12,254 nt of DNA from Candidatus Hermodarchaeota archaeon (GTDB lineage: Archaea; Asgardarchaeota; Hermodarchaeia; Hermodarchaeales; Hermodarchaeaceae). This document shows positions 1 through 12,254 of this stretch, piece after piece. The position numbers and the translations under genes were made by a program. Positions within the stretch are counted from its first letter, which is position 1, and every line of letters begins with the position of its first letter. The notes under the pieces were generated by a model, which saw only the letters and a list, made by a program, of their open reading frames with translations, had not been told where the DNA came from and did no database searches. The stretch is taken from contig JAEOTB010000113.1 of NCBI GenBank assembly GCA_016840065.1, forward strand, positions 1 to 12,254, written 5' to 3'.

Positions 1-11
1 GGGTGAAAAAA

Positions 12-1208
12 ATGGGTGAAAAACAACGCTTCGAAAAGGAAAAACAAGTCAAAATTGGAAGAATCGATGGGGATGTTGAGATCCGAGATTGTGATTCCAT
101 CGTACCCCTAAAGGGATCAGAGATTGTGGTGGAAGGCACCCTTCACATAAGAGGGCGACCACCAGTAATCGAAGGTTCACTGAAATGCGAATACCTAGAT
201 ATAGATTGCCGGGATGAAGTCGAGATTCGAGGCAATCTAACTGTAGCTACCTCCGTGAAGGTAGATCGGGGACGTTTGATAATCGATGGCTCAGCGAGAG
301 CACGCAGGTTCAGCATCAGCAGCGCACTAGAAGTAAAAGAAAACATTGAATGCACAACGGTCTCTTGTGGCGGCTCACTCCGTGTGGGTGGTGACATTAA
401 AGCAGAGAAACTTTCTGTCGGAGGCGCAGCCCGTATCGGCGGAAAAATCGAGGTTGAAGATCTAAGCGCAGGAGGCGCAGCTTCATGCAGCCACGGCATT
501 GTAGGCCGTGTCAATGTAGGTGGAGCCTTCAAAGCTACTGGAGCAATGGAGATCGGTGATTTAGATGTAGGAGGAGCTGCTGTAGTAGGTCCTGGCTCGA
601 AAATCCTTGACATCGACGTGGGTGGAGCTTTCAAATGCTCGGGTGAACTTGTTTTCGAAGAACTCGATGTTGGCGGCTCAGCCAAGGTCGAAGGCGATGC
701 CACTGGAAAAGATGTCAATGTCGGAGGAGTCTTGAAAGTGTCTGGGTCACTTGTACTCACAGAAGACCTAGATGTTGGCGGCGTAGTTGCAGTCGGGAGA
801 GATTTGCGTGTCAACGGGGCAATCGAAGTAGGCGGCAAACTTGAGGCTGGCGGTGAAATAGAAGGAAACCGCATTAGTGTAGGTGGAGGAATACGAGCTG
901 TCTACATAAAGGCTCATGAAGAATTCCGCATCGGTCGTCGTGGTGAAGTTAGAGGATTCGTTGAAGCCCGCGATATCATCGTTAGCGAAAAGGTTCGGGG
1001 TGAGTCCTTCTACGGCGAATCAATACGCATTGAGGAGAAAGCCCGAGTTCGAAACCTCTACGGACGTGACATCTATATTGAACGCGGTGTTGTTGTTGAG
1101 GGAGACATCCTCTATACCGGAAAAATTGAAACCGAAAGGAATGTTGACCTGAGAGTTGAACCCCAGAAGGTGGGTAAACTCCCTTCTCCCCAAAAAGTCG
1201 CCAAGTGA
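12..1208 (+). CDS. Extended bactofilin-like / polymer-forming cytoskeletal beta-helix protein (YhbE/YhbF-like)
   Basis: About 11 tandem 16-18 aa repeats of [LIV]-[DNSE]-V-G-G (LSVGGA, VNVGGA, LDVGGA, IDVGGA, LDVGGS, VNVGGV, LDVGGV, IEVGGK, ISVGGG). The C-terminal FYGESIRIEEKARVRNLYGRDIYIERGVVVEGDILY resembles Bacillus YhbE/YhbF ends. ATG at 12 follows the SD-like GGTGA (2-6). GTG at 3, or a start outside the window, cannot be excluded. Confidence 0.75.
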   Translation: MGEKQRFEKEKQVKIGRIDGDVEIRDCDSIVPLKGSEIVVEGTLHIRGRPPVIEGSLKCEYLDIDCRDEVEIRGNLTVATSVKVDRGRLIIDGSARARRFSISSALEVKENIECTTVSCGGSLRVGGDIKAEKLSVGGAARIGGKIEVEDLSAGGAASCSHGIVGRVNVGGAFKATGAMEIGDLDVGGAAVVGPGSKILDIDVGGAFKCSGELVFEELDVGGSAKVEGDATGKDVNVGGVLKVSGSLVLTEDLDVGGVVAVGRDLRVNGAIEVGGKLEAGGEIEGNRISVGGGIRAVYIKAHEEFRIGRRGEVRGFVEARDIIVSEKVRGESFYGESIRIEEKARVRNLYGRDIYIERGVVVEGDILYTGKIETERNVDLRVEPQKVGKLPSPQKVAK

Positions 1209-1221
1209 TTGAATAGTGAAT

Positions 1222-1271
1222 GAGGTATCAGGGGCTTTTGGCTAGCACCGATACCTCTTTTATTCCTTTTT
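1222..1271 (+). terminator. Hairpin plus oligo-T terminator-like element after the bactofilin-like gene
   Basis: GAGGTATC (1222-1229) pairs with GATACCTC (1250-1257), with inner GG/CC and GCT/AGC pairs, followed by TTTTATTCCTTTTT. Confidence 0.6.
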
Positions 1272-1316
1272 AACAAATCTTTACTACCTACGTATAGTGC
1301 TGTACAAGAACGCCAA

Positions 1317-2330
1317 ATGGTGGACTCGTTGACCCAGAAAGGAGGTGTAAAACTAGACAAAGGAATAGTTGTGGTGCCACTGGCAGCTGAGAGTATAGGA
1401 GTGCGTAGTCTTTCAACATTAATACGAACTCCTGATCTTAGAGTGCTAATCGACCCAGGCGCAGCCTTAGGTACTCGCAAGAAGCTGCATCCTCATCCCA
1501 AGGAGTACCAAATACTCGCCCAACGGCGCGCATCGATACAAGCAGCTGCTCAAGAATCAGACTGTATAGTGATATCACATTACCATTTTGACCATCTAGT
1601 TCCCTTTTTCAAGAATTACGCCTATTTCTGGTCAAGTAAAGAGGAAGCTGCAGCGCTCTATAATCGACGTCGAATAATGTGTAAAGACCCCACTCACAAT
1701 GTTAATCGCTCTCAACGAAAGCGTGGAACCGCGTTTATACATGCTGTAAGGAAGGTGGCTCGTGATGTTATCTTCGCAGATGGTCAATTGTTTAAAACAG
1801 GGGCAACGACAATCCGTTTTTCCCCTGCGGTTCCTCATGGAAAGCAAGGAACACATCTTGGCTCTGTGGTAATGACATCGATTCAATACCAAGGAGTTAG
1901 TGTGGTGCATGCCTCCGATGTTCAAGGACCGATGATTCCTGAGACTACGGACTGGATTCTACAACGGAATCCTCAACTACTGATTCTCGCAGGGCCACCA
2001 ACCTACCTGAGTCCTGAAAGAGTCTCCCCTTCTCTTATTACAGAAGCAGCAAATAACCTACAGCGTCTAGTCGTCAAGATACCTACGGTAATACTGGACC
2101 ATCATCTTCAGCGTGATCCTTGTTGGCGTGATTGGCTAGCACCTATTCAGAAGATATCCAGAGACGTTGGACATAGACTTATCACAGTAGCTGATGCAAT
2201 GGGAGTTCCAGAGCAATTGCTAGAGACGCAAAGATCTGAACTGTATGTTGCTGAACCTACATCTCACACCTACGAAGCTTGGGTAAAGACAATAACACGG
2301 GGCTTCACCACGACCCAGCCCCCATTATAA
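1317..2330 (+). CDS. UPF0282-family MBL-fold metallo-hydrolase
   Basis: Family-like motifs PLAAESIGVRS, IDPGAALG, HPHPKE, ISHYHFDH, VPHG, HASDVQGP and LDHHLQRD. The start is uncertain: a perfect SD (GGAGGTG, 1341-1347) lies inside the N-terminus. Confidence 0.85.
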   Translation: MVDSLTQKGGVKLDKGIVVVPLAAESIGVRSLSTLIRTPDLRVLIDPGAALGTRKKLHPHPKEYQILAQRRASIQAAAQESDCIVISHYHFDHLVPFFKNYAYFWSSKEEAAALYNRRRIMCKDPTHNVNRSQRKRGTAFIHAVRKVARDVIFADGQLFKTGATTIRFSPAVPHGKQGTHLGSVVMTSIQYQGVSVVHASDVQGPMIPETTDWILQRNPQLLILAGPPTYLSPERVSPSLITEAANNLQRLVVKIPTVILDHHLQRDPCWRDWLAPIQKISRDVGHRLITVADAMGVPEQLLETQRSELYVAEPTSHTYEAWVKTITRGFTTTQPPL

Positions 2331-2358
2331 AACTAGTCTGAACTTCCTGTTCTCATGT

Positions 2359-3057
2359 CTAAGAGAATATAGTGGATGCCTTTGGTTGTGGAGAATAGAA
2401 AGGTCCATGGAAAGGTAGTGGTATTTCTATGAATGCTTCAGCGAATTCGCAACCAGCTTGCAACCCACGTAGTCTTGCCTTTTGAAGATTGAAGGAATGA
2501 TAGTAACCCTCTGTTTTCTCCATCTGGCTTCTAAACGATATTATCGCCTGTCTTTTCAAATCAACAACTTCGGAAATGTCTACAAATAGGGTGGGTGCTG
2601 GAAAGAGATTGTTTATCTCCATACAAAGAAGGCGGCGAAATCGCCACGCTTTATCGCGTTTAAGAGTTGAGTGACCTGCCCATTCAGCTGCTCGTAAAAC
2701 TGCCTTATGTACAATTATGTGATCTGGGTGATAATCAAGGGAACTGTGGGTGATAATGGTATCTGGCTTAATCTTCCTAATGAGCGGAACGAGCTTGTCA
2801 GAAGTTTCACGAACACTTAGAGAGAAATCCGCTCCTACCTCAGCAACAACCTTAGCACCAAGGATTTTACATGCTGCGCGTAGCTCCTTGTGGCGTGCTG
2901 GTGTACCAGTAAGGCAGCACACAGTAACCTCAGCATCACGGCTAACCTCCAATGCTATTGTGCCCCCGCACCCAAATGTCTCATCATCTGCATGAGCGCC
3001 TACAACAAGGAGTCTTTTTGATTTGGAAGAAATGGAGGTTCTTGTATCTTTAGGCAT
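2359..3057 (-). CDS. bshB: PIG-L/LmbE-family N-acetylglucosaminyl deacetylase, probable GlcNAc-malate deacetylase BshB
   Basis: Zn motif GAHADDETFGCGGT, HPDH, C-terminal RG..AG..FAEAF, and adjacency to bshA/bshC. ATG at 3057 is preferred over the TTG at 3084 used by the ORF track. Confidence 0.8.
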   Translation of the reverse strand: MPKDTRTSISSKSKRLLVVGAHADDETFGCGGTIALEVSRDAEVTVCCLTGTPARHKELRAACKILGAKVVAEVGADFSLSVRETSDKLVPLIRKIKPDTIITHSSLDYHPDHIIVHKAVLRAAEWAGHSTLKRDKAWRFRRLLCMEINNLFPAPTLFVDISEVVDLKRQAIISFRSQMEKTEGYYHSFNLQKARLRGLQAGCEFAEAFIEIPLPFHGPFYSPQPKASTIFS

Positions 3058-3170
3058 ATTCAAAGATTGGTGGGCTATCGTCAAAAGCCTTCGTTTTCTA
3101 CCAGTTTCTTTTCCGTAAGCGTTCTAGTACCTGAAGGATAAAAGATAAGGGCAGTGCTGAGCTTGAGCGC

Positions 3171-4289
3171 ATGGGATTCTCGATGCGAATTGGGATAACT
3201 TGCTACCCTAGTATCGGTGGGTCAGGATTACTAGCGACCAGGTTAGCTATCGAGCTGGCAAAAAGGGGCCACGAACTTCATATGATTACGTATGAAGTTC
3301 CCTTCCTCCTGCAGGAAGGTCGTCATGATAACATCACAGTCAATCTTGTCGATGTGTTAAGCTATCCTCTCTTCAGGTTCCCACCCTATACCGTTGCCTT
3401 GGCTTCTCAAATGGCTAGTGTGATTAAGAAACACAAGTTAGATTTGATTCACGCACACTATGCTATTCCTCATGCAGTTTCTGCGTATCTCGCTCACGAA
3501 ATGACTGGTATTCCCTATGTTGTTACGCTTCACGGTTCTGATGTTCACACGCTTGGAGCTGACCCTGCATACCAACCCGCCACTCGTTTCGCTGTAGAAG
3601 CTGCTGATGCAGTAACATGTGTAACAAAACACATCTGCCAGACAGCAGAGCAGACATTAGGTGTTCGCTGCAAAATCAACCCGATAACTAACTTTACTGA
3701 TCCTGACCAATTCAAGCCTGGACCCTGCATTCATCGATGTGAAGAGCATCAGAAAGAACTGGTTCACGTTTCCAACTTCAGACCAGTAAAACGTGTCCCT
3801 GATCTTGTTACTGCCTTCGCCCAAATTTCGTCAGAAGTGCCTGATGCTACTCTTCTGCTTCTTGGTGATGGTCCAGAGCGACCTACTGTAGAGCGCCTAA
3901 TCCGGGAATTTAATCTAGGTGACAGAGTGAGGTGTCCTGGATTCAAGCGAGATGTATACACCTATTTACGATGCGCTCACGCTTTCGTGCTTTGTTCCGA
4001 ACTGGAGGGGGCTCCCCTCTCGATTCTCGAAGCGATGAGTAGCGGTCTACCAGTAGTTGCGACAGAAGTTGGAGGGATACCTGAACTCATCACTGATGGA
4101 AAGAATGGTTTATTGGTCCCATTTGGGGATATCGATGCTTTAGCAAACAAGCTCTACGCTGTACTTACTGACGATGTTCTTGCTCAAAGCCTGGGCGAAC
4201 AAGCCAGAAAGAGTATTCTCGCTAACCACACAGCTGAACAAGTGATTCCGAGATACGAAGAAGTCTACGAGACTATTATTAGTCGTTAA
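3171..4289 (+). CDS. bshA: N-acetyl-alpha-D-glucosaminyl L-malate synthase BshA (GT4 glycosyltransferase)
   Basis: BshA-type motifs IGITCYPSIGGSG, YPLFRFPPY, HAHYAIPHA, TLHGSDV, HVSNFRPVKRV, plus the GT4 E-x7-E motif (EGAPLSILE). Alternative ATG at 3183. Confidence 0.92.
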   Translation: MGFSMRIGITCYPSIGGSGLLATRLAIELAKRGHELHMITYEVPFLLQEGRHDNITVNLVDVLSYPLFRFPPYTVALASQMASVIKKHKLDLIHAHYAIPHAVSAYLAHEMTGIPYVVTLHGSDVHTLGADPAYQPATRFAVEAADAVTCVTKHICQTAEQTLGVRCKINPITNFTDPDQFKPGPCIHRCEEHQKELVHVSNFRPVKRVPDLVTAFAQISSEVPDATLLLLGDGPERPTVERLIREFNLGDRVRCPGFKRDVYTYLRCAHAFVLCSELEGAPLSILEAMSSGLPVVATEVGGIPELITDGKNGLLVPFGDIDALANKLYAVLTDDVLAQSLGEQARKSILANHTAEQVIPRYEEVYETIISR

Positions 4290-4297
4290 CATGACTT

Positions 4298-6082
4298 TTA
4301 CGCTATCTCATCGCTGATGTAAAAGGTGGCAGCGGCTGGAGTGAAGGGTTGGTAATGGGTGCTTAGCTTTGAGAACAGCGTGTCAAGTCCTATAGACAAA
4401 GCCATGTCGATCCAAGCGAAGCTAACTTCCTGCGCGTAGCGCTCTTGTGAATATCGCCCGTACATCTGGGATAGGTAAGTTTGAAGTAGTTGACGTCGTT
4501 TTGTCAGCAAGCCAATTCTTTCTTGGAGTTGACGACGATGAGTCGAATCAGTTACTTCTCGCTGTTCTGCAACCATAGTTGACCTCTCTTTGTCTAATTG
4601 AGTCTCTGCTTTTAATAGATGCTCGTATGTTTCTCTGATGTATTCGCTACAGGCGGCAAAGAGGGAACGTACAACTCCTGCGTTCTTCTCACGCCCATTT
4701 GTTTCGACTGCTGATAGGTAAGTCCACAGCTTCACTGGTAGAAGGGGTTGTAGTTTCTCCTTCTGGAGCTTGTCAGCTAATCTTCTAGTCCAAGGATTGC
4801 CATAGAAGAGGCGAGTATATCGGAAGAAGATTGGGGCTACACACTTTACTGCGGCAAGGGCAGGAGAGACCTGTGCATGATAGCTTGTCTCCCCAGCTCC
4901 TCCTATGTGTAAAGTGACTGGTGTAAAAGTTTGAACTAGGAAAGCACGTGTATCAACTCTAGGAGAGAGATGTTCTTTCCAAGGGCTAAGATCTGGGTTC
5001 CTTTCTGAAACTTCAAGAATATGGTCTTCTTTGCATTTTGGACAGGTAGCAGTTAGTTGGATTGTGTTTGTGCTTGGTCGCACATTTAGCATAGGCTCTG
5101 TCCTTGTACGTTGGCACCCTTTTGTCGGGCATTCTAGAAGGAAGGGAACATAATTGTCTTGTCGGTGACCTATTCCTGGTTGGTACCCAAGACTTCGAAG
5201 CTGCTCAGCGGATTGGTTGAGGGCCTTAGTGAAGCGTAGTCGGTTAGGTTCTTTCAATAAATATTCAAAGGCTGGCAACATCAAATCACGGATTATAGGC
5301 TGAGAGAATGCTTGGAAGAGGATACCACTACCTTCATCTAGGTTGGTCATGTGCATCCATATGCGAAGGGTCCAGTCTGCTAGATTTGATGCTTGAGTAA
5401 ATGTCTGCGAGAGAAGATTAACGATGGACATCACATTTTGAGCGTATGACATACGATCTTGTTTTGGTTGAGAAGCAACAAGTTCATGATAGGTTGACTC
5501 AATTCTCTTACAGACTTGCTCTAGCCATTTCTTAGGGGGTAGGGGTAAGATGTGGAGAGGGGAGTTCCTATACTCGCGTGGAACTTGGAGTGAAAATGTT
5601 AGCCCCTTGGGTCCTGGACTAGGAAGGTGAACTACGGTAAGTTCTTTCTGTTCATGGTCATGATCTCCAACAAACATTACTGGTATTGCATTTTGAAATG
5701 AAGCGAGACGGCTTATGGCTGCCATTTTATTAATTACAAAACCTGGGCCACCAAGCACAGCTGGTTGGTGTCCCGCCTCTACAACCGATAGACTTTGTGT
5801 CAGTTGGTTCAGCATTTCTTTTACTTTGCTGGTCATCATTCGATGTTCTCTATGAAGGGTTGTTATTGCTTGAAGCAGTTTTTCTACGCGGTCTTCTGAG
5901 AAGAGTGGTGTGTCGCCTTTCGAATATGAATGAGAAATTGGTTGGCTGAATTGAACTGCTTCTGCTGCTGTTCGAGGTATTGGTCCCCAGAATTGATGTT
6001 CTACGGTCTCCTGGTCAAAAACATAAGCAGTGTAGAGATTGTTTGCGTCAGGTAAAATGGAGGTACCCCGGGACGGTTTCAT
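4298..6082 (-). CDS. bshC: Bacillithiol cysteine-adding enzyme BshC, divergent, with Cys4 insertion
   Basis: AGHQPAVLGGP..INK (cf. BshC GQQAGL.TGP), IPVMFVGDHDHE (cf. P.FW.AGEDHD), LSPRVDTRA (cf. SPNV.LRP), IGGAGETSYHAQ (cf. GGPGE.AY.AQ), a long C-terminal coiled-coil and QER. Lies next to bshA. Confidence 0.82.
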   Translation of the reverse strand: MKPSRGTSILPDANNLYTAYVFDQETVEHQFWGPIPRTAAEAVQFSQPISHSYSKGDTPLFSEDRVEKLLQAITTLHREHRMMTSKVKEMLNQLTQSLSVVEAGHQPAVLGGPGFVINKMAAISRLASFQNAIPVMFVGDHDHEQKELTVVHLPSPGPKGLTFSLQVPREYRNSPLHILPLPPKKWLEQVCKRIESTYHELVASQPKQDRMSYAQNVMSIVNLLSQTFTQASNLADWTLRIWMHMTNLDEGSGILFQAFSQPIIRDLMLPAFEYLLKEPNRLRFTKALNQSAEQLRSLGYQPGIGHRQDNYVPFLLECPTKGCQRTRTEPMLNVRPSTNTIQLTATCPKCKEDHILEVSERNPDLSPWKEHLSPRVDTRAFLVQTFTPVTLHIGGAGETSYHAQVSPALAAVKCVAPIFFRYTRLFYGNPWTRRLADKLQKEKLQPLLPVKLWTYLSAVETNGREKNAGVVRSLFAACSEYIRETYEHLLKAETQLDKERSTMVAEQREVTDSTHRRQLQERIGLLTKRRQLLQTYLSQMYGRYSQERYAQEVSFAWIDMALSIGLDTLFSKLSTHYQPFTPAAATFYISDEIA

Positions 6083-7308
6083 GACGAATTTTCCTCCTCT
6101 GTCGGCTGCCTACGCATTCCTATTCCCACTAGACAACTGAGGATCGAGACTGTAGCTATGAGAGCAATAAGTGTAAGGGTGTTCGCTGAGAAGTAGAGAG
6201 TGTCTAGAATGGGAATTGACCCCCCAAACTCCCATAATTCATATTCCATTCTTTGAAGGCTATGATTGACTAAATCCGATTGTGCGGTTCGTCTTTCACC
6301 GATATAGTCAGATCCATTACAAACCCAAAGCGTGACAACTGGTACATTCCGAACGTAGAGTGAATTATACACGGCACTTGACGGGTCTGAAGCAATATAG
6401 CCCGTAAGGAGGTCAAAAGGAAGCCAGCCCCAAGGCGGCACATAGGCCATGACCCAAGCATGACCCACACCATTTCGCCAGTCAACATAGAGATAAGCCT
6501 CTTCTGCAATAGAACCCCAGAGAAAGCCTGTTGTAATCGCGCCTTCCTGATACCAGTGTCCGGTCATTAAATAACAGGGAATACCAAAAAGTCGAAGAAG
6601 TACAATAAGTAGATTTGATTTATCGTCGCAGTCTCCTATTTGACTATTCACTAATTCCTCAGGATATTGGGGCTCAGTTAACGTAATAGGATTGTGAATG
6701 TGAGTATCAATCCAGGACATAGCTGCATAAATCAAAGCTAGTGTTTTCTCTTGTTCATCCTCCGCTAATTCACTCTGAATTGAAGACGCCAAGTCTATGA
6801 GAGTACCGTTATCGGTTTTCCAAAGACTAGTAGCCTGAGTATACCAGTAATACTCCTCCGCATCCATCAAGCTAGAAATATCAGTTACATTTCCTGATTG
6901 TTCTGTGTCTATCTGAGGTGGATTGAATCTATGATCTAACACCTCAAATGACCATTCTTCCTCCCAAAACAGAATATCACCTGGTTGAAATGGCGTAGTT
7001 AAATTAGATTCCTGCAGATGATTTCCATCGATATCAGTTGTTAATCTGGTTATTTGTATACTATCATTGTTTAATGTGATATTCTGGCTAATTTGTTTAC
7101 AAACTTGGGAACTTGAGTTACTGTAATAGTCCCAGAAACGATAAGGTTCAGAAGAATAAGAGGAATTACCTGAAACAATTAAGGCACCTGAGACACTGAA
7201 ATTCCAAAAATGGACATAGCGAAAGCCCTGAACAGATGGAGGTGGTGAGCATAGTAGGGCGAAAAGAATGATACCCATTAGAACTGTTACATATCTAGGT
7301 TTTCGCAT
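6079..7308 (-). CDS. Secreted, C-terminally membrane-anchored transglutaminase-like (Cys-His-Asp) protein
   Basis: GDCDDKSNLL..LLRLFGIP and GHAWV..Y....GWLPFD motifs, an N-terminal signal peptide, a C-terminal TM helix followed by RR, and about 10 N-x-S/T sequons. The stop overlaps the bshC start (ATGA, 6079-6082). Confidence 0.88.
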   Translation of the reverse strand: MRKPRYVTVLMGIILFALLCSPPPSVQGFRYVHFWNFSVSGALIVSGNSSYSSEPYRFWDYYSNSSSQVCKQISQNITLNNDSIQITRLTTDIDGNHLQESNLTTPFQPGDILFWEEEWSFEVLDHRFNPPQIDTEQSGNVTDISSLMDAEEYYWYTQATSLWKTDNGTLIDLASSIQSELAEDEQEKTLALIYAAMSWIDTHIHNPITLTEPQYPEELVNSQIGDCDDKSNLLIVLLRLFGIPCYLMTGHWYQEGAITTGFLWGSIAEEAYLYVDWRNGVGHAWVMAYVPPWGWLPFDLLTGYIASDPSSAVYNSLYVRNVPVVTLWVCNGSDYIGERRTAQSDLVNHSLQRMEYELWEFGGSIPILDTLYFSANTLTLIALIATVSILSCLVGIGMRRQPTEEENSS

Positions 7309-7446
7309 TACGGCGTCGCCAATCCTCCAGATTAGAGTATCGTTGCTTATTCATAAGCCCTTTTCTTTTTTCACCACTCTACATCTTGAGATTGATAACA
7401 ATGTCCATTGCTGGATAGTGGTGGAAGCAGGTACAACAGTGTAATA

Positions 7447-7460
7447 CCAGTGTTTTTTAA
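7447..7460 (+). promoter_or_regulatory. Putative TATA-box region for the E2F-like gene
   Basis: CCAGTGTTTTTTAA, similar to CCAGTATTTTTAA at 8541-8553 and to TATTTTTAAG at 9686-9695. Confidence 0.4.
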
Positions 7461-7602
7461 CGAACGCAGATAATACAGTATCTTAGAGTCGTTTGGCACT
7501 AGGGTCCGGCTTGGAGATTGAGCCGTAACCCTTTTATCCACATTGTGCTAGGCGGGTTGACAATATCCCTAACGCACTAGATTGTTTAAAGAGGAAATCT
7601 GA

Positions 7603-8082
7603 ATGAAGCTTGGTGAAGTCTCAAAGATGGTGGTCGACTTCTTGCGCAGTAGTCCTAGCAAGGAATTTACTGCTAATACTGTTCTCCTGCATTTAGGTTT
7701 GCCACCAGAACAGAAACGACGGGTTTATGATGTTATCGAAGTATTGGCATGTGCTGGGCAGATAACAGTCCGTAAAGAGGGAAGAAAACGACACTTCCAA
7801 TGGATTGCTACACCAGCTCCTGAACCTGTGGAGTCGGTGGAGCTCGATCTCCCCGAGAATTCTCCATTCAGTGAGGCAGGGACAGTTCTTCATGTACTGC
7901 TTCATTTCAATGCTCGTGCATTCCAAGAACTCTCGAATGAAGCTACGATGGGAATGCTTGAAAGAGATATAAAACGTGCGGTCTTGGGGGCAAACGCAGT
8001 CAGTATAACCCGAATTACACTCCAGAATAGTCAAGGGCGTATTTTGAAACAATCTCCGAGTGCTCTTCCTGCTGCTGTGTGA
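7603..8082 (+). CDS. Winged-helix DNA-binding protein of E2F/DP type with an uncharacterised C-terminal domain
   Basis: Residues 1-69 read KLGEVSKMVVDFL...QKRRVYDVIEVL..AGQI..RKEGRKRHFQWIA, matching the E2F/DP pattern SLG.L...F...L...QKRR.YD..NVL...G.I......[FI].W.G. SD-like GAGG at 7591-7594. Confidence 0.75.
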   Translation: MKLGEVSKMVVDFLRSSPSKEFTANTVLLHLGLPPEQKRRVYDVIEVLACAGQITVRKEGRKRHFQWIATPAPEPVESVELDLPENSPFSEAGTVLHVLLHFNARAFQELSNEATMGMLERDIKRAVLGANAVSITRITLQNSQGRILKQSPSALPAAV

Positions 8083-8112
8083 AGTCAAAAACATAGTAGT
8101 TGATTCGAAAGG

Positions 8113-8505
8113 CTAGCCTTGTTCTTCTAAATCCTTTCTAACCGATTCATAGAAGCTGATAGCTTCTTCACCACGACGTTTAACCATTATCTTAGGTTCA
8201 ACACCTTCGAGCCGTCGCTGTACCTGAAGAACTCCAATCTTTGGTATTTTTCTGACAAGTTGTCGTCGAAGAAAGAGGGTAATGGCAATATCCTCTATCC
8301 GTGCAGCAAGGTGGGGTTTAGTTTGCCTTAGCTCAACAAGATAAGAGACAGCATCAGGCATGAAAATTTCTTGGATAAGTCGTTGCCGCTTCTGCTGCTG
8401 TTCCTCTTCTATTTCTCTAACCGCTTCCTGCTGCTTCTTCTCCTTAAGGATGGCCTGCAGTTTTCGTCTTCGAATAATCGACAGTTCATCAGATTCCTTG
8501 GACAT
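8113..8505 (-). CDS. PDCD5 / TFAR19-family DNA-binding protein (divergent)
   Basis: ELSIIRRRKLQ, an E/Q-rich helix, IFMPDA..YL..LRQTKP.LA..IE, RKI and a basic KI.VKRR tail, collinear with the archaeal PDCD5 family. Confidence 0.75.
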   Translation of the reverse strand: MSKESDELSIIRRRKLQAILKEKKQQEAVREIEEEQQQKRQRLIQEIFMPDAVSYLVELRQTKPHLAARIEDIAITLFLRRQLVRKIPKIGVLQVQRRLEGVEPKIMVKRRGEEAISFYESVRKDLEEQG

Positions 8506-8540
8506 CGAATTAATCCCAGCTACAAGGAGAAGGCACTAGC

Positions 8541-8562
8541 CCAGTATTTTTAAGGTTTTTGA
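8541..8562. promoter_or_regulatory. Putative bidirectional TATA region between the PDCD5 and M28 genes
   Basis: + strand TATTTTTAAG (8545-8554) lies about 35 nt before the GTG at 8590. The - strand reads AAAAACCTTAAAAA about 40 nt before the ATG at 8505. Confidence 0.5.
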
Positions 8563-8589
8563 ACAATCCCATCAACATACATATTCAAG

Positions 8590-9651
8590 GTGGTCTTTTT
8601 TTTGCAGCGCTGGAATTCCCTTGTTTCTCTTCTGATAATCACGGCGTTAGTCGCCTCACCAATTATACCTATTTTTGAAACGAGTTACTCGCTGATTCCA
8701 CATCCTGTTGTCCGTTCTGATTCCCTTGAATTCAATGGCACACGTGCATTCGCTTATCTAGAGGCTCAATGTGCCTTTGGACCACGGCCACCAGGCTCAG
8801 ATAATCTGACCCGATGCGGGAATTACGTAATCTCCACACTTGAAACGCTAGGGTGGCCTGTAGAACAGCAGAACTGGACGCACATGGGAACACCTCTGAG
8901 GAACATCATTGCTGGGGCAGCTGATTTGCCTCGAATAGTGCTACTAGCTCACTATGACACAAGACCAAGGGCAGACAATGAGCCTGATCCTATAAACCAA
9001 TCACAACACATACTCGGCGCGAACGATGGCGGGAGTGGCACGGCAGCATTACTTGAACTCGCAGCAGTGCTACCAGATACTGCTAAAAATTCAGTTGTCC
9101 TCCTCTTCGTTGACGCAGAGGACTCGGGAGGTATTAATGGCTGGGAATGGATAGTGGGGTCAACATACTATGTAAACAGCCTTATCGTAAATCAGGTGGC
9201 TATGATAGAAGCTGCTATTCTTCTGGATATGATGGGCGACGCAGACCTACAGCTGAAACGCGAGGGCAGTTCCACTCCAAATCTTGTTGACAATCTCTGG
9301 GAAACTGCTGCAAACCTTGGATATGACAATCTTTTCCAAAACATACCTGGATACACACTTGTAGATGATCACCGCCCTTTCCTGCAAGCAGGAATACCTG
9401 CAGTCGATATCATTGACTTCGATTATCCTTACTGGCATACGCTTGAAGATACTCCAGACAAATGCTCTCCGGATTCACTCGAGGCAGTGGGGCGAGTAGT
9501 TGAGCAATTTGTACAAGAACAACTAGACTCGCCTTTGACGTTTCGGAATCCTCTAGGCTGGTGGATAGTCATTGGTTCTGCTTCCTTAGTCTGTCTTGTT
9601 GTTATTGTTGTGTTGTACATCCGGTTTCGAAGAAGCAAGCACACAATGTGA
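8590..9651 (+). CDS. M28-family Zn enzyme, glutaminyl-peptide cyclotransferase-like, secreted and membrane-anchored
   Basis: FGPRPPGS, AHYDTR, GANDGGSG, FVDAED, LLDMMG, DDHRPF and YWHTLEDT motifs, an N-terminal signal/TM segment, and a C-terminal TM helix followed by RFRR. GTG start (TTG at 8602 also possible). Confidence 0.88.
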   Translation: MVFFLQRWNSLVSLLIITALVASPIIPIFETSYSLIPHPVVRSDSLEFNGTRAFAYLEAQCAFGPRPPGSDNLTRCGNYVISTLETLGWPVEQQNWTHMGTPLRNIIAGAADLPRIVLLAHYDTRPRADNEPDPINQSQHILGANDGGSGTAALLELAAVLPDTAKNSVVLLFVDAEDSGGINGWEWIVGSTYYVNSLIVNQVAMIEAAILLDMMGDADLQLKREGSSTPNLVDNLWETAANLGYDNLFQNIPGYTLVDDHRPFLQAGIPAVDIIDFDYPYWHTLEDTPDKCSPDSLEAVGRVVEQFVQEQLDSPLTFRNPLGWWIVIGSASLVCLVVIVVLYIRFRRSKHTM

Positions 9652-9685
9652 TTGTATTTATTCCAATAAGGGTCTACCACCTGAA

Positions 9686-9695
9686 TATTTTTAAG
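9686..9695 (+). promoter_or_regulatory. Putative TATA box for alba
   Basis: TATTTTTAAG, identical to 8545-8554, preceded by CTGAA. It implies a start site near 9715-9720 and a leader of about 120 nt. Confidence 0.5.
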
Positions 9696-9721
9696 AGACC
9701 ATTTCGAATCTTCGTTCCTCC

Positions 9722-9825
9722 CCGGTGATGAAGCAGGAGCATAACATCTCCTACGCTTCTACAAATCAAAGAATACGATAACACTGGTGGATTCAGAAAA
9801 TACGAAAAACTCTCCTTTCAGGAGG
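9722..9825 (+). promoter_or_regulatory. Putative structured 5' leader and SD of alba
   Basis: Nested stems CCGGTG/CACTGG, GAAGC/GCTTC and AGGAG/CTCCT. The SD GGAGG (9821-9825) can pair with CTCCT (9812-9816). Confidence 0.4.
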
Positions 9826-9836
9826 AAACTAATAAA

Positions 9837-10154
9837 ATGCCAAAAGCAAAATCAACAGAATCAAAACCCAAAGCAGAGAAAGATGAAAGCGTTGTCTTCG
9901 TCGGCAGCAAGCCCCTGATGTCGTACATAACAGCCTGTGTGACACAACTCAACCGAAATCCTGATGAGCTTGTCATCAAGGCGCGTGGTCGAGCTATTAG
10001 CCGTGCAGTTGACGTCGCTGAAGTTCTACGAAACCGGTTCATGACTGACCTTAAGGTGAGCAGCATCGAAATCAGCACTGAGCAAGTGACGACTGCAGAA
10101 GGAAACACCGCAAACGTAAGCGCAATGGAAATTACTTTAGTGAAAACTAAGTAG
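9837..10154 (+). CDS. albA: DNA/RNA-binding chromatin protein Alba
   Basis: [33 protein letters not shown] and NVSAMEITL. Strong SD and a double TAG stop. Confidence 0.97.
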
Positions 10155-10217
10155 TAGCCAGTGGTTGCAAACGCCATCAGTACTCGAATATTGCAGCCTC
10201 TTCGAAAACCCTACCGC

Positions 10218-10263
10218 GGGAGAACGTTCTGCTGTTTTTTGCAGTGGTTCTCCCTCCCTTTTT
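10218..10263 (+). terminator. Hairpin plus pyrimidine tract between convergent alba and amidohydrolase genes
   Basis: GGGAGAAC (10218-10225) pairs with GTTCTCCC (10247-10254), with inner CTGC/GCAG and a T-rich loop, followed by TCCCTTTTT. Confidence 0.55.
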
Positions 10264-10309
10264 CTCTCCCGATTCTAGTAGACTTCGTTTCTCGTATTAT
10301 GTATTAGGG

Positions 10310-11869
10310 CTAGTTAGCTGTAAATACAAGGGCACCACCGATGTAGGTTTGTTTTATCTTCATTTTCCGAAGCGTTTCAGAATCTACCGAGAGGGGATTC
10401 TCAGAAAGGACTACAAAATCAGCTAGCTTACCAGGAGCAAGGCTTCCTTTCTCTTGCTCTTCGAAACTAGCATAAGCTGACTCGAGAGTATAGCATTGTA
10501 ATGCCTCCTTGATTGTAATGCGTATGTCAGGATTGGGGTGGGCAACCGCTGAGTAAAGCCCATATATCGGATCCAAAGGCATACAATCAGACCCAAAGGC
10601 CACGCGAACACCCTCATCTAGGATGCTCCGAAAATTATTCAGTCCTTGTGCACGAGCCTCTCCTAAACGCTCGTCGTACATTCCTCCAGGATTTCCCCAA
10701 CGGAGAGCGAAGTTCGGCTGCATCAACAGAAGCATATCAAGTTCCTTCACGCGTTTAAGCAGGGGTGCGGTCAGCTGCTCTGCATGGATAATGTTGTGAC
10801 GTAGCTGCTTAATCGTCTTTCTACCACTCACCTTTTCCTGACAGCTTAGCACCATATCAATAGCTGCTTCGCCAATTGCGTGGGTACTGACTTGTTGTTC
10901 TAGTCTGTTAGCCACTTCCAAAATCGAACAATATTCCTCTTCTCCCATCTCAAGGTATCCACTATTCGATGGATCATCAGTATAAGATTGATTAAGGGCT
11001 GCTGTTCGAGCACCAAGTGAGCCATCAGTAAATACCTTTATTCCACCAATCCGGAAAGTGCTGTCACCCAATCCTGAGGTAAAACCAAGTTTTACTATAG
11101 GCGCTATCAGGTCCTTATCTAAATTACAGTAGGTCCGCACAGTAAGTTCACCTGCCCTCCAGAGTTTAAGATAGCTTGCAAGGCAATGAAGTTGTGTTCT
11201 GGATAGGTTCTCGTGAACCGATGTGATGCCCAGACTGGCAGCAAATAGAGAGGCAGCGCGAATACTTTGAAGCGATTCCTCCTCCAGTGAGCGGAGGTGA
11301 CGAGTATCAACAGGAACGTCACGAAGTACTCCAGTTGGCTCTCCTGTTCGCGCATCCTTGTCAACACCCGGGTGACTAAAATCAATGTCCAACTTGTTTA
11401 ATGCAAGGGAATTTACACTATAGAGATGACCGCAAACACGTACAAGCACCACTGGATTCTTTGGTGCAACAGAATCAAGGTCAATTCTAGTAAGGTACCG
11501 GCGAACAGGCCAACCACTTTCATCCCAATTATATCCAAAGACTGTCTTTCCAGATGAAGCCCGAGCAACATACTTCCGTAATTTGGCCAAGGCATCCTCC
11601 GCAGATTCAGCATCACCCAGATCTAGATTTATTAAACGGCGTCCTAAGCCTTCAAGATGAGCATGGCTATCGATAAAACCAGGCGTTATAGTTCGCCCGC
11701 GTAAATCTAGAACGCGTCCTGCAAATCTAGCCAAACCTGCTAGCTCCTTGTTATCTCCAATCGCAATGATTCTTCCACTACTGACCGCCATCGCTTCAGC
11801 TGAAGGAAGGTCAGGGTTCATTGTCAAAATATCCGCATTTGAAACAACAAGGTCAATACGTAGGGTCAA
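10310..11869 (-). CDS. YtcJ-like metal-dependent amidohydrolase (Amidohydro_3)
   Basis: PGFIDSHAH, GIKVFTDGSLGARTAAL, HAIGE, IIHAE, FGSDC and GSLAPGKLADFVVL. TTG start with SD-like GAGGT 9 nt upstream. Confidence 0.92.
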   Translation of the reverse strand: MTLRIDLVVSNADILTMNPDLPSAEAMAVSSGRIIAIGDNKELAGLARFAGRVLDLRGRTITPGFIDSHAHLEGLGRRLINLDLGDAESAEDALAKLRKYVARASSGKTVFGYNWDESGWPVRRYLTRIDLDSVAPKNPVVLVRVCGHLYSVNSLALNKLDIDFSHPGVDKDARTGEPTGVLRDVPVDTRHLRSLEEESLQSIRAASLFAASLGITSVHENLSRTQLHCLASYLKLWRAGELTVRTYCNLDKDLIAPIVKLGFTSGLGDSTFRIGGIKVFTDGSLGARTAALNQSYTDDPSNSGYLEMGEEEYCSILEVANRLEQQVSTHAIGEAAIDMVLSCQEKVSGRKTIKQLRHNIIHAEQLTAPLLKRVKELDMLLLMQPNFALRWGNPGGMYDERLGEARAQGLNNFRSILDEGVRVAFGSDCMPLDPIYGLYSAVAHPNPDIRITIKEALQCYTLESAYASFEEQEKGSLAPGKLADFVVLSENPLSVDSETLRKMKIKQTYIGGALVFTAN

Positions 11870-11904
11870 CGTTACAATACCTCATTGAATATAGGATTTT
11901 CACT

Positions 11905-11916
11905 AACCTTATATCT
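11905..11916. promoter_or_regulatory. Putative shared TATA box of the divergent amidohydrolase / solute-binding protein genes
   Basis: AACCTTATATCT on + (GATATAAGG on -), centred in a 95-bp divergent spacer. Confidence 0.4.
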
Positions 11917-11964
11917 ACAACATCCTTGTGATAACTCGTGCCATATGTGATATGAGGCGTTATC

Positions 11965-12254
11965 ATGGTTACTTCCTACTCTATTTACATCCACCGCCTA
12001 CAGAACCGTAAAGGTACACTCTATCTTGCAGCTTGTCTGCTACTCCTTGGGGCCCTCGTCTTTGGTCTCAACATTGTCCCAGCAAGCGGTAGTACAATTC
12101 CACGTCAACTTGAACCCGCTTTCGGGTATCAAGGTCCCTACATCAATGATCTCGTCTTCAGCTTTTATCATGGCGCCGATGCACAATGGGCAGCGTTGAC
12201 AGACGGTGTTATTGATGCTGGTAATGAATTAGTAGTACCCGTGGCTAGATCTGA
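11965..12254 (+). CDS. 5' fragment of a secreted protein, probable family-5 (peptide/nickel) ABC solute-binding protein; runs off the window
   Basis: Not in the ORF track. Manual translation gives MVTSYSIYIHRLQNRKGTLYLAACLLLLGALVFGLNIVPASG...GPYINDLVFSFYHGADAQWAALTDGVIDAG... with no stop. It has a signal peptide, a GPY.D.LVF....A..AAL..G.ID motif and GAGG at 11954-11957. Confidence 0.65.
   Translation, partial: MVTSYSIYIHRLQNRKGTLYLAACLLLLGALVFGLNIVPASGSTIPRQLEPAFGYQGPYINDLVFSFYHGADAQWAALTDGVIDAGNELVVPVARS

Follow-up and report, generated by a model that had tools for sequence, protein, structure and literature searches.

Bacillithiol-type gene trio in a Hermodarchaeota contig points to a probable archaeal-type thiol pathway

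Introduction

Do some archaea make bacillithiol, or a thiol closely resembling it? The question is raised by a 12,254-nt stretch of DNA from a Candidatus Hermodarchaeota archaeon (assembly GCA_016840065.1, contig JAEOTB010000113.1, positions 1-12,254; the whole stretch is referred to below as the window), in which three adjacent genes encode relatives of BshB, BshA and BshC, the enzymes of bacillithiol (Cys-GlcN-malate) synthesis. To our knowledge, all measurements of bacillithiol come from bacteria, and the host belongs to the Asgard archaea, the closest known relatives of eukaryotes. The initial annotation of the window proposed that this archaeon makes bacillithiol or an analogue of it, and the analyses below favor a product of the bacillithiol type as the best reading of the locus.

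The idea of bacillithiol in archaea is not new, being both in print and in NCBI annotation. A 2020 review counted, among archaea and mostly in Asgard members, 39 InterPro hits for BshA and as many for BshC, but only two YpdA homologues, and raised the possibility that archaea make bacillithiol (Rawat and Maupin-Furlow, PMC7278568); in NCBI annotation the genes of the relatives already carry the names BshA and 'bacillithiol biosynthesis BshC', but their deacetylase is called merely 'PIG-L deacetylase family protein'. The published record is inconsistent, because a 2025 RefSeq BLAST survey reported the complete pathway in no archaeon (PMC12719100), against the archaeal BshA and BshC of the earlier review. 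The window itself is of modest value, as a further instance of a system already in print and annotation; what is added here, from sequence comparison, is the recognition of distinct archaeal branches for all three enzymes, of changed substrate-contact residues, of the distribution of the trio, and of two versions of it.

The three bacillithiol-family proteins

Open reading frames (ORFs) were found at 2359-3084 (minus strand), 3171-4289 (plus strand) and 4298-6082 (minus strand), exactly where the initial annotation had placed them, and their positions and family matches confirm its claim of three adjacent genes homologous to bshB, bshA and bshC. The same three families, in one locus, constitute the bacterial system represented by BshA, BshB1 (BshB2) and BshC of B. 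subtilis, B. anthracis and Staphylococcus aureus (PDB 3mbo, 5d00, 2ixd, 6p2t and 4wbd).

The glycosyltransferase (3171-4289, plus strand) is a 372-aa GT4 protein assigned to the BshA family by TIGR03999, against which it scores 389.3 bits (equivalog cutoff 273.7). Among the 19 GT4 matches in the source genome it alone exceeds that cutoff, the runner-up scoring 140 bits. It matches B. anthracis BshA (3mbo/2jjm) over its whole length with 301 bits and B. subtilis BshA (5d00) with 284 bits. Across 78 named bacterial BshAs, whose sources include Bacillota, Bacteroidota, Acidobacteriota, Gemmatimonadota, Planctomycetota and Ignavibacteriota, its sequence identity is 35-44%. The GGSG, HGSD, VSNFRPVKR and LEAM motifs (the last holding the second Glu) are all present, and the functional positions of the GGSG loop, His118, Thr120, VSN, Lys209 and Glu288 (S. 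aureus numbering) are accounted for, with the Thr replaced by Ser in HGSD here and in all archaeal sequences examined. At positions at least 95% conserved in the 78 bacterial proteins, 65 of 85 residues are kept and 20 are changed. The initial description of this BshA as very Bacillus-like therefore holds for the equivalog match and for the score against the B. anthracis enzyme, but not for the overall identity or for the changed positions, which include the sugar-contact motif: ESFG in bacteria, EGAP (residues 279-282) in the window.

The deacetylase (2359-3057, minus strand) was identified from profile scores and alignment to PDB 2ixd as a BshB-like zinc enzyme of the PIG-L/LmbE family and of an archaeal type. 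The longest version of its ORF, 241 aa, begins at a TTG at 3084; the ATG at 3057 is likely to be the true start, and the resulting length of 232 aa agrees with that of the database copy P0211. It scores 77.7 bits on Pfam PIG-L (gathering threshold, GA, 28.2), and BshB1 (TIGR04001) is its top named NCBIfam, ahead of BshB2 (62.6 bits) and MshB (42.6 bits). In bacterial BshB, His12, Asp15 and His113 are the zinc ligands and Asp14, His110 and Asp112 the catalytic residues (PMC4101496). When aligned to B. cereus BshB BC1534 (2ixd), the archaeal protein keeps the ligands H12, D15 and H113 as H31, D34 and H122, the catalytic D14, H110 and D112 as D33, H119 and D121, and R53 as R64. A profile search identified it as the sole PIG-L gene in the source genome, and it is without close bacterial relatives.

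The third protein (4298-6082, minus strand; 594 aa) was assigned to the BshC family, as an archaeal type, by PF10079 and by an AlphaFold2 (AF2) model. It scores 74.8 bits on PF10079, the BshC N-terminal domain (GA 27). The model, built from an alignment of 22 relatives (predicted local distance difference test 91.1, predicted TM-score 0.91), comprises a Rossmann core like that of class I aminoacyl-tRNA synthetases (aaRS) and a C-terminal helical domain, and its best match in the PDB is B. subtilis BshC 4WBD (Foldseek E 2e-19, TM 0.64/0.70). Alignment to 4WBD with VIA-align gave Z 30.6 over 483 residues with a root-mean-square deviation of 3.7 Å, compared with Z 19.6 for the next structural match, class I LysRS, and Z ≤12 for other class I synthetases. 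As modeled, the protein thus matches over its full length the BshC fold of a Rossmann core with connecting-peptide insertions and a helical C-terminal domain. Of the 32 positions at least 85% conserved in 63 canonical BshCs, 22 are kept, including the elements GxQ...GP...K, D.DH..E, also written D..H...E, R327, S373/R379, GG.GE..Y and QE, and ten differ, including W137F, R422Y and R553V. We know of no BshC for which the catalytic residues have been experimentally defined. Sequence identity to 4WBD is 16-17%, and the archaeal protein is ~55 residues longer.

A further difference from 4WBD is a zinc-ribbon-like Cys4 element (C318, C323, C347 and C350; 5033-5131, minus strand), recognized from the alignment and the model. 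The four cysteines are invariant in the 22-sequence alignment down to 32% identity, and are found in all own-clade representatives, in most mid-clade representatives and in most archaeal subclades, an f4-type subclade being without them; they occur in none of the 63 canonical BshCs. In the AF2 model they lie in a small beta subdomain (strands 315-317, 331-334, 340-346 and 353-359), where they would be expected to bind zinc. The element also encloses R327, and the aligned Arg is 97% conserved in canonical BshC; the subdomain is therefore common to both groups, with the metal-binding decoration as the difference between them. A comparison of the segment with PDB sequences returned only ribosomal protein L33, whose E of 0.3 is not significant.

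An exhaustive representative search recovered ~59 close relatives of the archaeal BshC-like protein, then a gap, then the canonical BshCs. The protein is without close bacterial relatives, its nearest ones all coming from Asgard metagenome-assembled genomes (MAGs), most of them labeled Hermodarchaeota, and three intermediate members that were traced lie on contigs with Asgard hallmarks. Archaeal-type and canonical proteins formed separate clades in a FastTree phylogeny (SH-like support 100), which was unrooted, drawn with a midpoint root and subject to long-branch warnings, so that no donor or direction of transfer is drawn from it.

Linkage and distribution in archaea

The contig is clearly archaeal (Hermodarchaeota, Asgard) and not a binning artefact, because the flanking genes are of archaeal or Asgard type and the entire 12-kb gene order is syntenic in 15 Hermod-type Asgard species genomes (L001-L015), which were independently assembled and have protein identities of only 50-60%. 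The conserved order runs bactofilin-like, MBL fold, deacetylase, bshA, bshC, transglutaminase-like, E2F/DP, PDCD5-like, M28 peptidase, small ORF and amidohydrolase; on the contig the neighbors include an E2F/DP winged helix protein, a PDCD5-type DNA-binding protein (PRK04239) and a PRK04286 MBL-fold protein. The possibility of a bacterial contig, raised in the initial annotation, is thereby removed.

The trio is no peculiarity of one archaeon. In a sample of 301 Asgard genomes, the three families rise and fall together by Asgard family: BshC, BshA and BshB-like proteins were found in 16, 15 and 16 of the 18 genomes of the window's own family (f1), in 28, 28 and 29 of the 29 genomes of f4, in 69, 69 and 71 of the 76 of f6, and in 10, 11 and 11 of the 11 of f13, with a single BshC and neither of the other two among the 68 genomes of f9. 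BshA and BshC are adjacent on one contig in every case inspected (for example G268:C54, G026:C1, G231:C90, G043:C21 and G142:C1). The adjacency is not a chance event, since the source genome has a single BshA-grade GT4 and a single PIG-L gene, which adjoin one another, and since the families co-occur from one Asgard family to the next.

The same archaeal-type trio is present in Bathyarchaeia, including the closed genome CP070784.1 (L037) and three metagenome loci (L041-L043). Their BshC-like protein is 32% identical to that of the window over its full length and has the same Cys4 element; their BshA has a Pro-type motif (ESAP), their deacetylase carries the same Tyr variant as that of the window (DYHREH), and bshA and bshC are likewise convergent or overlapping. 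The archaeal-type version to which the window's trio belongs is an old one. Its presence in the majority of genomes of several Asgard families and also in Bathyarchaeia, together with the deep, separate BshC-like clade, fits the old acquisition envisaged in the initial annotation.

The Bathyarchaeia loci (L037:7397-15532, L041, L042 and L043) also have features of their own. A cluster of PIG-L, Amidohydro_2 (PF04909), BshA and archaeal-type BshC genes recurs in them, to which some add DinB_2/MST-family (thiol S-transferase family), NUDIX and Thioredoxin_9 genes; in one locus a thioredoxin-fold gene lies between bshA and bshC. Amidohydro_2, placed between the deacetylase and bshC genes, is constant there, and neither it nor any of these additional genes is present in the window.

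Two versions of the trio exist in archaea, the archaeal type, to which the window and all others belong, and a bacterial type, found in Asgard family f27 (L038, equal to G231:C90; L038:6162-9564). The f27 trio shares with the window its phylum and the clustering of the same three families, but it passes all of the equivalog cutoffs (BshC 386.5, BshB1 222.5 and BshA 423.8 bits), whereas in the window only BshA does so. It also has ESFG in BshA, DRHPDH in the deacetylase and no Cys4 element, its genes are co-directional in the order BshC-BshB1-BshA, and its BshC nests within the canonical clade, all of which suggests a separate, later acquisition.

One lineage shows a further variant of the deacetylase. 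In an f6 genome (G268:C54), the enzyme encoded beside bshA-bshC (L039:6325-7053, plus strand) reads DYNRNH where that of the window reads DYHPDH, with Asn at the equivalents of both catalytic His110 and Asp112 and the zinc-ligand His retained; the enzyme of that lineage may have a changed activity or none.

Proposed pathway and points against it

From the homology and fold of the three proteins, the intact catalytic residues of the deacetylase, and the clustering and co-occurrence across two archaeal phyla, we infer that the trio is probably an archaeal-type bacillithiol pathway. The GT4 would transfer an N-acetylhexosamine from its UDP-sugar onto a hydroxy acid, which in bacteria is L-malate; the zinc deacetylase would take off the acetyl group, and the BshC-like enzyme would add cysteine to the freed amine, yielding a Cys-aminosugar-acid thiol of low molecular weight. 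Once oxidized, this thiol would be reduced by a system other than the usual bacterial recycling enzymes, as these were not found. Profile searches of the source genome revealed no gamma-Glu-Cys ligase (PF04107, PF04262) and no EgtD (PF10017), leaving the trio as the only dedicated thiol pathway found there among those searched for. A thiol role is also favored by the DinB/MST-family and thioredoxin-fold genes in Bathyarchaeia versions of the cluster.

Several points weigh against this reading. Bacillithiol has been chemically detected in no archaeon (PMC7278568), and no one has reconstituted the BshC reaction in vitro, not even with the bacterial enzyme (PMC5790435; PMC4360819), so that the cysteine-addition step is assigned by homology to a genetically defined enzyme. 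Scoring against the equivalog hidden Markov models, by which the initial annotation proposed that the pathway be checked, places only BshA above its cutoff. The deacetylase reaches 94.7 bits on TIGR04001, well under the cutoff of 182.5 and about half of it, and the 594-aa protein, for all that it passes PF10079, reaches 83.9 bits on TIGR03998, one-third of the cutoff of 265.8, where canonical BshC representatives of 500-560 aa score 418-470 bits. The initial annotation saw strong divergence in BshC, but all three enzymes are archaeal-type variants.

The residues that differ include substrate contacts in the first two enzymes. In BshA, the ESFG motif (S. aureus residues 280-283) is highly conserved and hydrogen-bonds N-acetylglucosamine (GlcNAc), through contacts of Ser with the N-acetyl group and of the backbone NH of Gly with the hydroxyls at C3 and C4 (PMC10361700). 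It is ESFG in 77 and EAFG in one of the 78 bacterial proteins, with Phe-Gly invariant throughout, but EGAP in the window and in 32 of 32 Hermod-type (window-clade) sequences. The Bathyarchaeia-type group has ES[A/S/T]P or ENAP and an f6 example EGMP, while f4 and f27 examples have ESFG. In addition, Glu24, five residues past the GGSG loop and invariant in bacteria, is Arg here; EGAP and E24R leave 18 more changes at the highly conserved positions. A related GT4 capsule polymerase has Pro at the position of the motif's Gly, and when this Pro is mutated to Gly the enzyme takes UDP-Glc as donor in place of UDP-Gal (PMC10361700); by analogy with this one precedent, EGAP and E24R might affect the choice of donor or acceptor. 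In the deacetylase, Y118 replaces R109 of BC1534, the one change among the aligned functional residues. Docking has both Arg53 and Arg109 of bacterial BshB contacting GlcNAc-malate, and R109K significantly lowers the activity of the bacterial enzyme (PMC4101496). All 52 Hermod-type orthologues have the Tyr, as do the other archaeal subclades, whereas Arg occupies the position in all three bacterial BshB-type structures and in the f27 protein. The initial annotation placed a possible change of chemistry at the final step; if the chemistry is altered, the evidence (the BshA motif, Arg109 to Tyr, and BshC) points to all three steps and not to the last alone.

The enzymes that recycle bacillithiol in bacteria are a further point. 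Of the brx, bdr and bst genes named in the initial annotation, Bdr/YpdA, BrxA/B and BrxC were not found above cutoff in the 84%-complete source genome or in 18 family members, and only a possible Bst-type transferase, one DinB_2 protein encoded outside the locus, was recovered in the source genome. Across 151 Asgard genomes the tallies are four for YpdA, none for BrxA/B and one for BrxC, which is interrupted by a stop.

The four YpdA/Bdr-type proteins, three from f13 and one from f4, exceed the equivalog cutoff with 355-376 bits (G015:C29:33056-34018, G036:C134:11344-12306, G054:C2:342363-343331 and G086:C15:1544-2509), and a few lineages with the archaeal-type trio may thus have the bacterial recycling enzyme.

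Alternative explanations

If the trio makes a bacillithiol-type thiol, authentic bacillithiol and a close analogue, such as one with another sugar epimer or aglycone, have roughly even odds, because all three enzymes differ from their bacterial counterparts at conserved or substrate-contact positions; the initial proposal of bacillithiol or an analogue thus stands as to the type of product and is left evenly divided between the two. That the product is Cys-GlcN-malate itself, with the archaeal differences representing neutral drift or lineage-specific binding of the same substrates, is a sub-case of the archaeal-type pathway to which we give rather less than an even chance. It draws on a BshA score (389 bits) above the equivalog cutoff of 273.7, on the kept GGSG, HGSD and VSN..K motifs and second Glu, and on family f4, which pairs an ESFG-type BshA with archaeal-type deacetylase and BshC, so that the archaeal downstream enzymes can evidently work with a canonical-looking BshA. 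It has to contend with Ala-Pro in place of a Phe-Gly pair invariant in bacterial BshAs, with the association of Pro at the Gly position with galactose specificity in the related GT4 (PMC10361700), with Arg at the bacterially invariant Glu24, and with Tyr throughout the archaeal clade in place of the BshB Arg109 that contacts docked GlcNAc-Mal. A further reading, to which we again give less than an even chance, is that Asgard archaea and Bathyarchaeia make a new thiol, akin to bacillithiol yet with a chemistry of its own, with the zinc-ribbon BshC as the older form of the enzyme and recycling by a reductase unrelated to Bdr/YpdA. Such a thiol might contain a different N-acetylhexosamine, the Gly-to-Pro change in BshA matching the glucose/galactose switch of the related GT4, or it might contain a different acid aglycone, given the loss of the malate-contacting Arg109 from the deacetylase and the change of Glu24 to Arg in BshA.

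A product that is not a thiol at all appears improbable. Here the first two enzymes would make an aminosugar glycoside, to serve as compatible solute or as precursor of a glycoconjugate, and the group added by the BshC-like protein would not be cysteine, or the protein would have another role; the chemistry of BshC is undefined even in bacteria, a long branch separates the archaeal clade from canonical BshC, known bacillithiol-dependent redox enzymes were not found, and one f6 deacetylase has Asn at two catalytic positions. On the other hand, the protein retains the core residues of the BshC family, the three families, a BshA-grade enzyme among them, co-occur tightly, DinB/MST-type and thioredoxin-fold genes accompany the trio in Bathyarchaeia versions of the cluster, and the source genome yielded no other dedicated thiol pathway. 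Mis-binned bacterial DNA, or a very recent transfer from bacteria, deserves mention in view of the 5% contamination estimated for the source MAG and of the genuinely bacterial-type trio in f27, but its probability is negligible: a bacterial origin of the window is ruled out by the flanking genes on the same contig and by a 12-kb order shared by 15 independently assembled genomes, while the BshC-like and deacetylase proteins lack close bacterial relatives and the window BshA is distant from all of the bacterial BshAs compared. The archaeal-type bacillithiol pathway thus remains the preferred reading of the trio.

Comparison with related systems and significance

Compared with its bacterial counterpart, the archaeal-type pathway combines a BshA above equivalog level, a deacetylase with its zinc ligands (His, Asp, His), catalytic Asp/His/Asp and Arg53 equivalent intact, and a BshC-like fold with an archaeal host and with no Bdr/YpdA or bacilliredoxins found. 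Mycothiol synthesis in Actinomycetota (MshA/MshB/MshC) follows the same plan, with a GT4, an LmbE-type deacetylase and a class I aaRS-like cysteine ligase, and its first two enzymes are distantly homologous to those of the window. The difference is nevertheless plain: the window proteins score 66.6 bits for MshA (cutoff 462.5) and 42.6 bits for MshB (cutoff 224.35), and the third enzyme, with its BshC fold, is no relative of MshC/CysRS.

If the product is confirmed, the main redox buffer of major sediment archaea would be defined, with a bearing on the redox chemistry of the lineage that gave rise to eukaryotes. The archaeal enzymes are also natural variants at substrate-contact residues, useful for work on specificity, and the zinc-ribbon BshC offers a fresh handle on an enzyme that has resisted reconstitution since its discovery in 2010.

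Gene layout and flanking genes

The deacetylase and bshA genes diverge from a 113-bp intergenic region (3058-3170), delimited by reading the sequence, which presumably holds the promoters of both; an A/T-rich stretch, GGATAAAAGATAAGG, lies ~20-35 bp 5' of the bshA ATG. The bshA and bshC genes are convergent, with a gap of 8 bp.

Upstream of bshC on the same strand is a gene for a transglutaminase-core protein (6079-7308, minus strand; Pfam Transglut_core, 50 bits), which has a hydrophobic N-terminal segment, a C-terminal membrane anchor and many N-x-S/T sequons. A 4-nt overlap joins its stop to the start of bshC, and the two genes are therefore probably co-transcribed. It adjoins bshC in every Hermod-type locus whose flank is present, but none of the f4, f6, f27 or Bathyarchaeia loci inspected was found to carry it beside the trio. 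The MBL-fold and transglutaminase-like genes were considered as parts of the system and rejected, because only in Hermodarchaeota do they accompany the trio, which by itself makes up the conserved unit.

Finally, nine of the 14 sister Hermod-type loci that contain both genes carry an insert between bshC and bshA, seen in L004 (9786-10316, plus strand) as a 176-aa nitroreductase-family gene (PF00881, 115.8 bits) and in L002, L003, L006, L007, L009, L012, L014 and L015 as an equivalent gap of ~600 bp. The best nitroreductase homologue in the source genome is only 38% identical and lies away from the locus (C5:4707-5234). The product of the inserted gene is a candidate for an accessory redox enzyme in this system.

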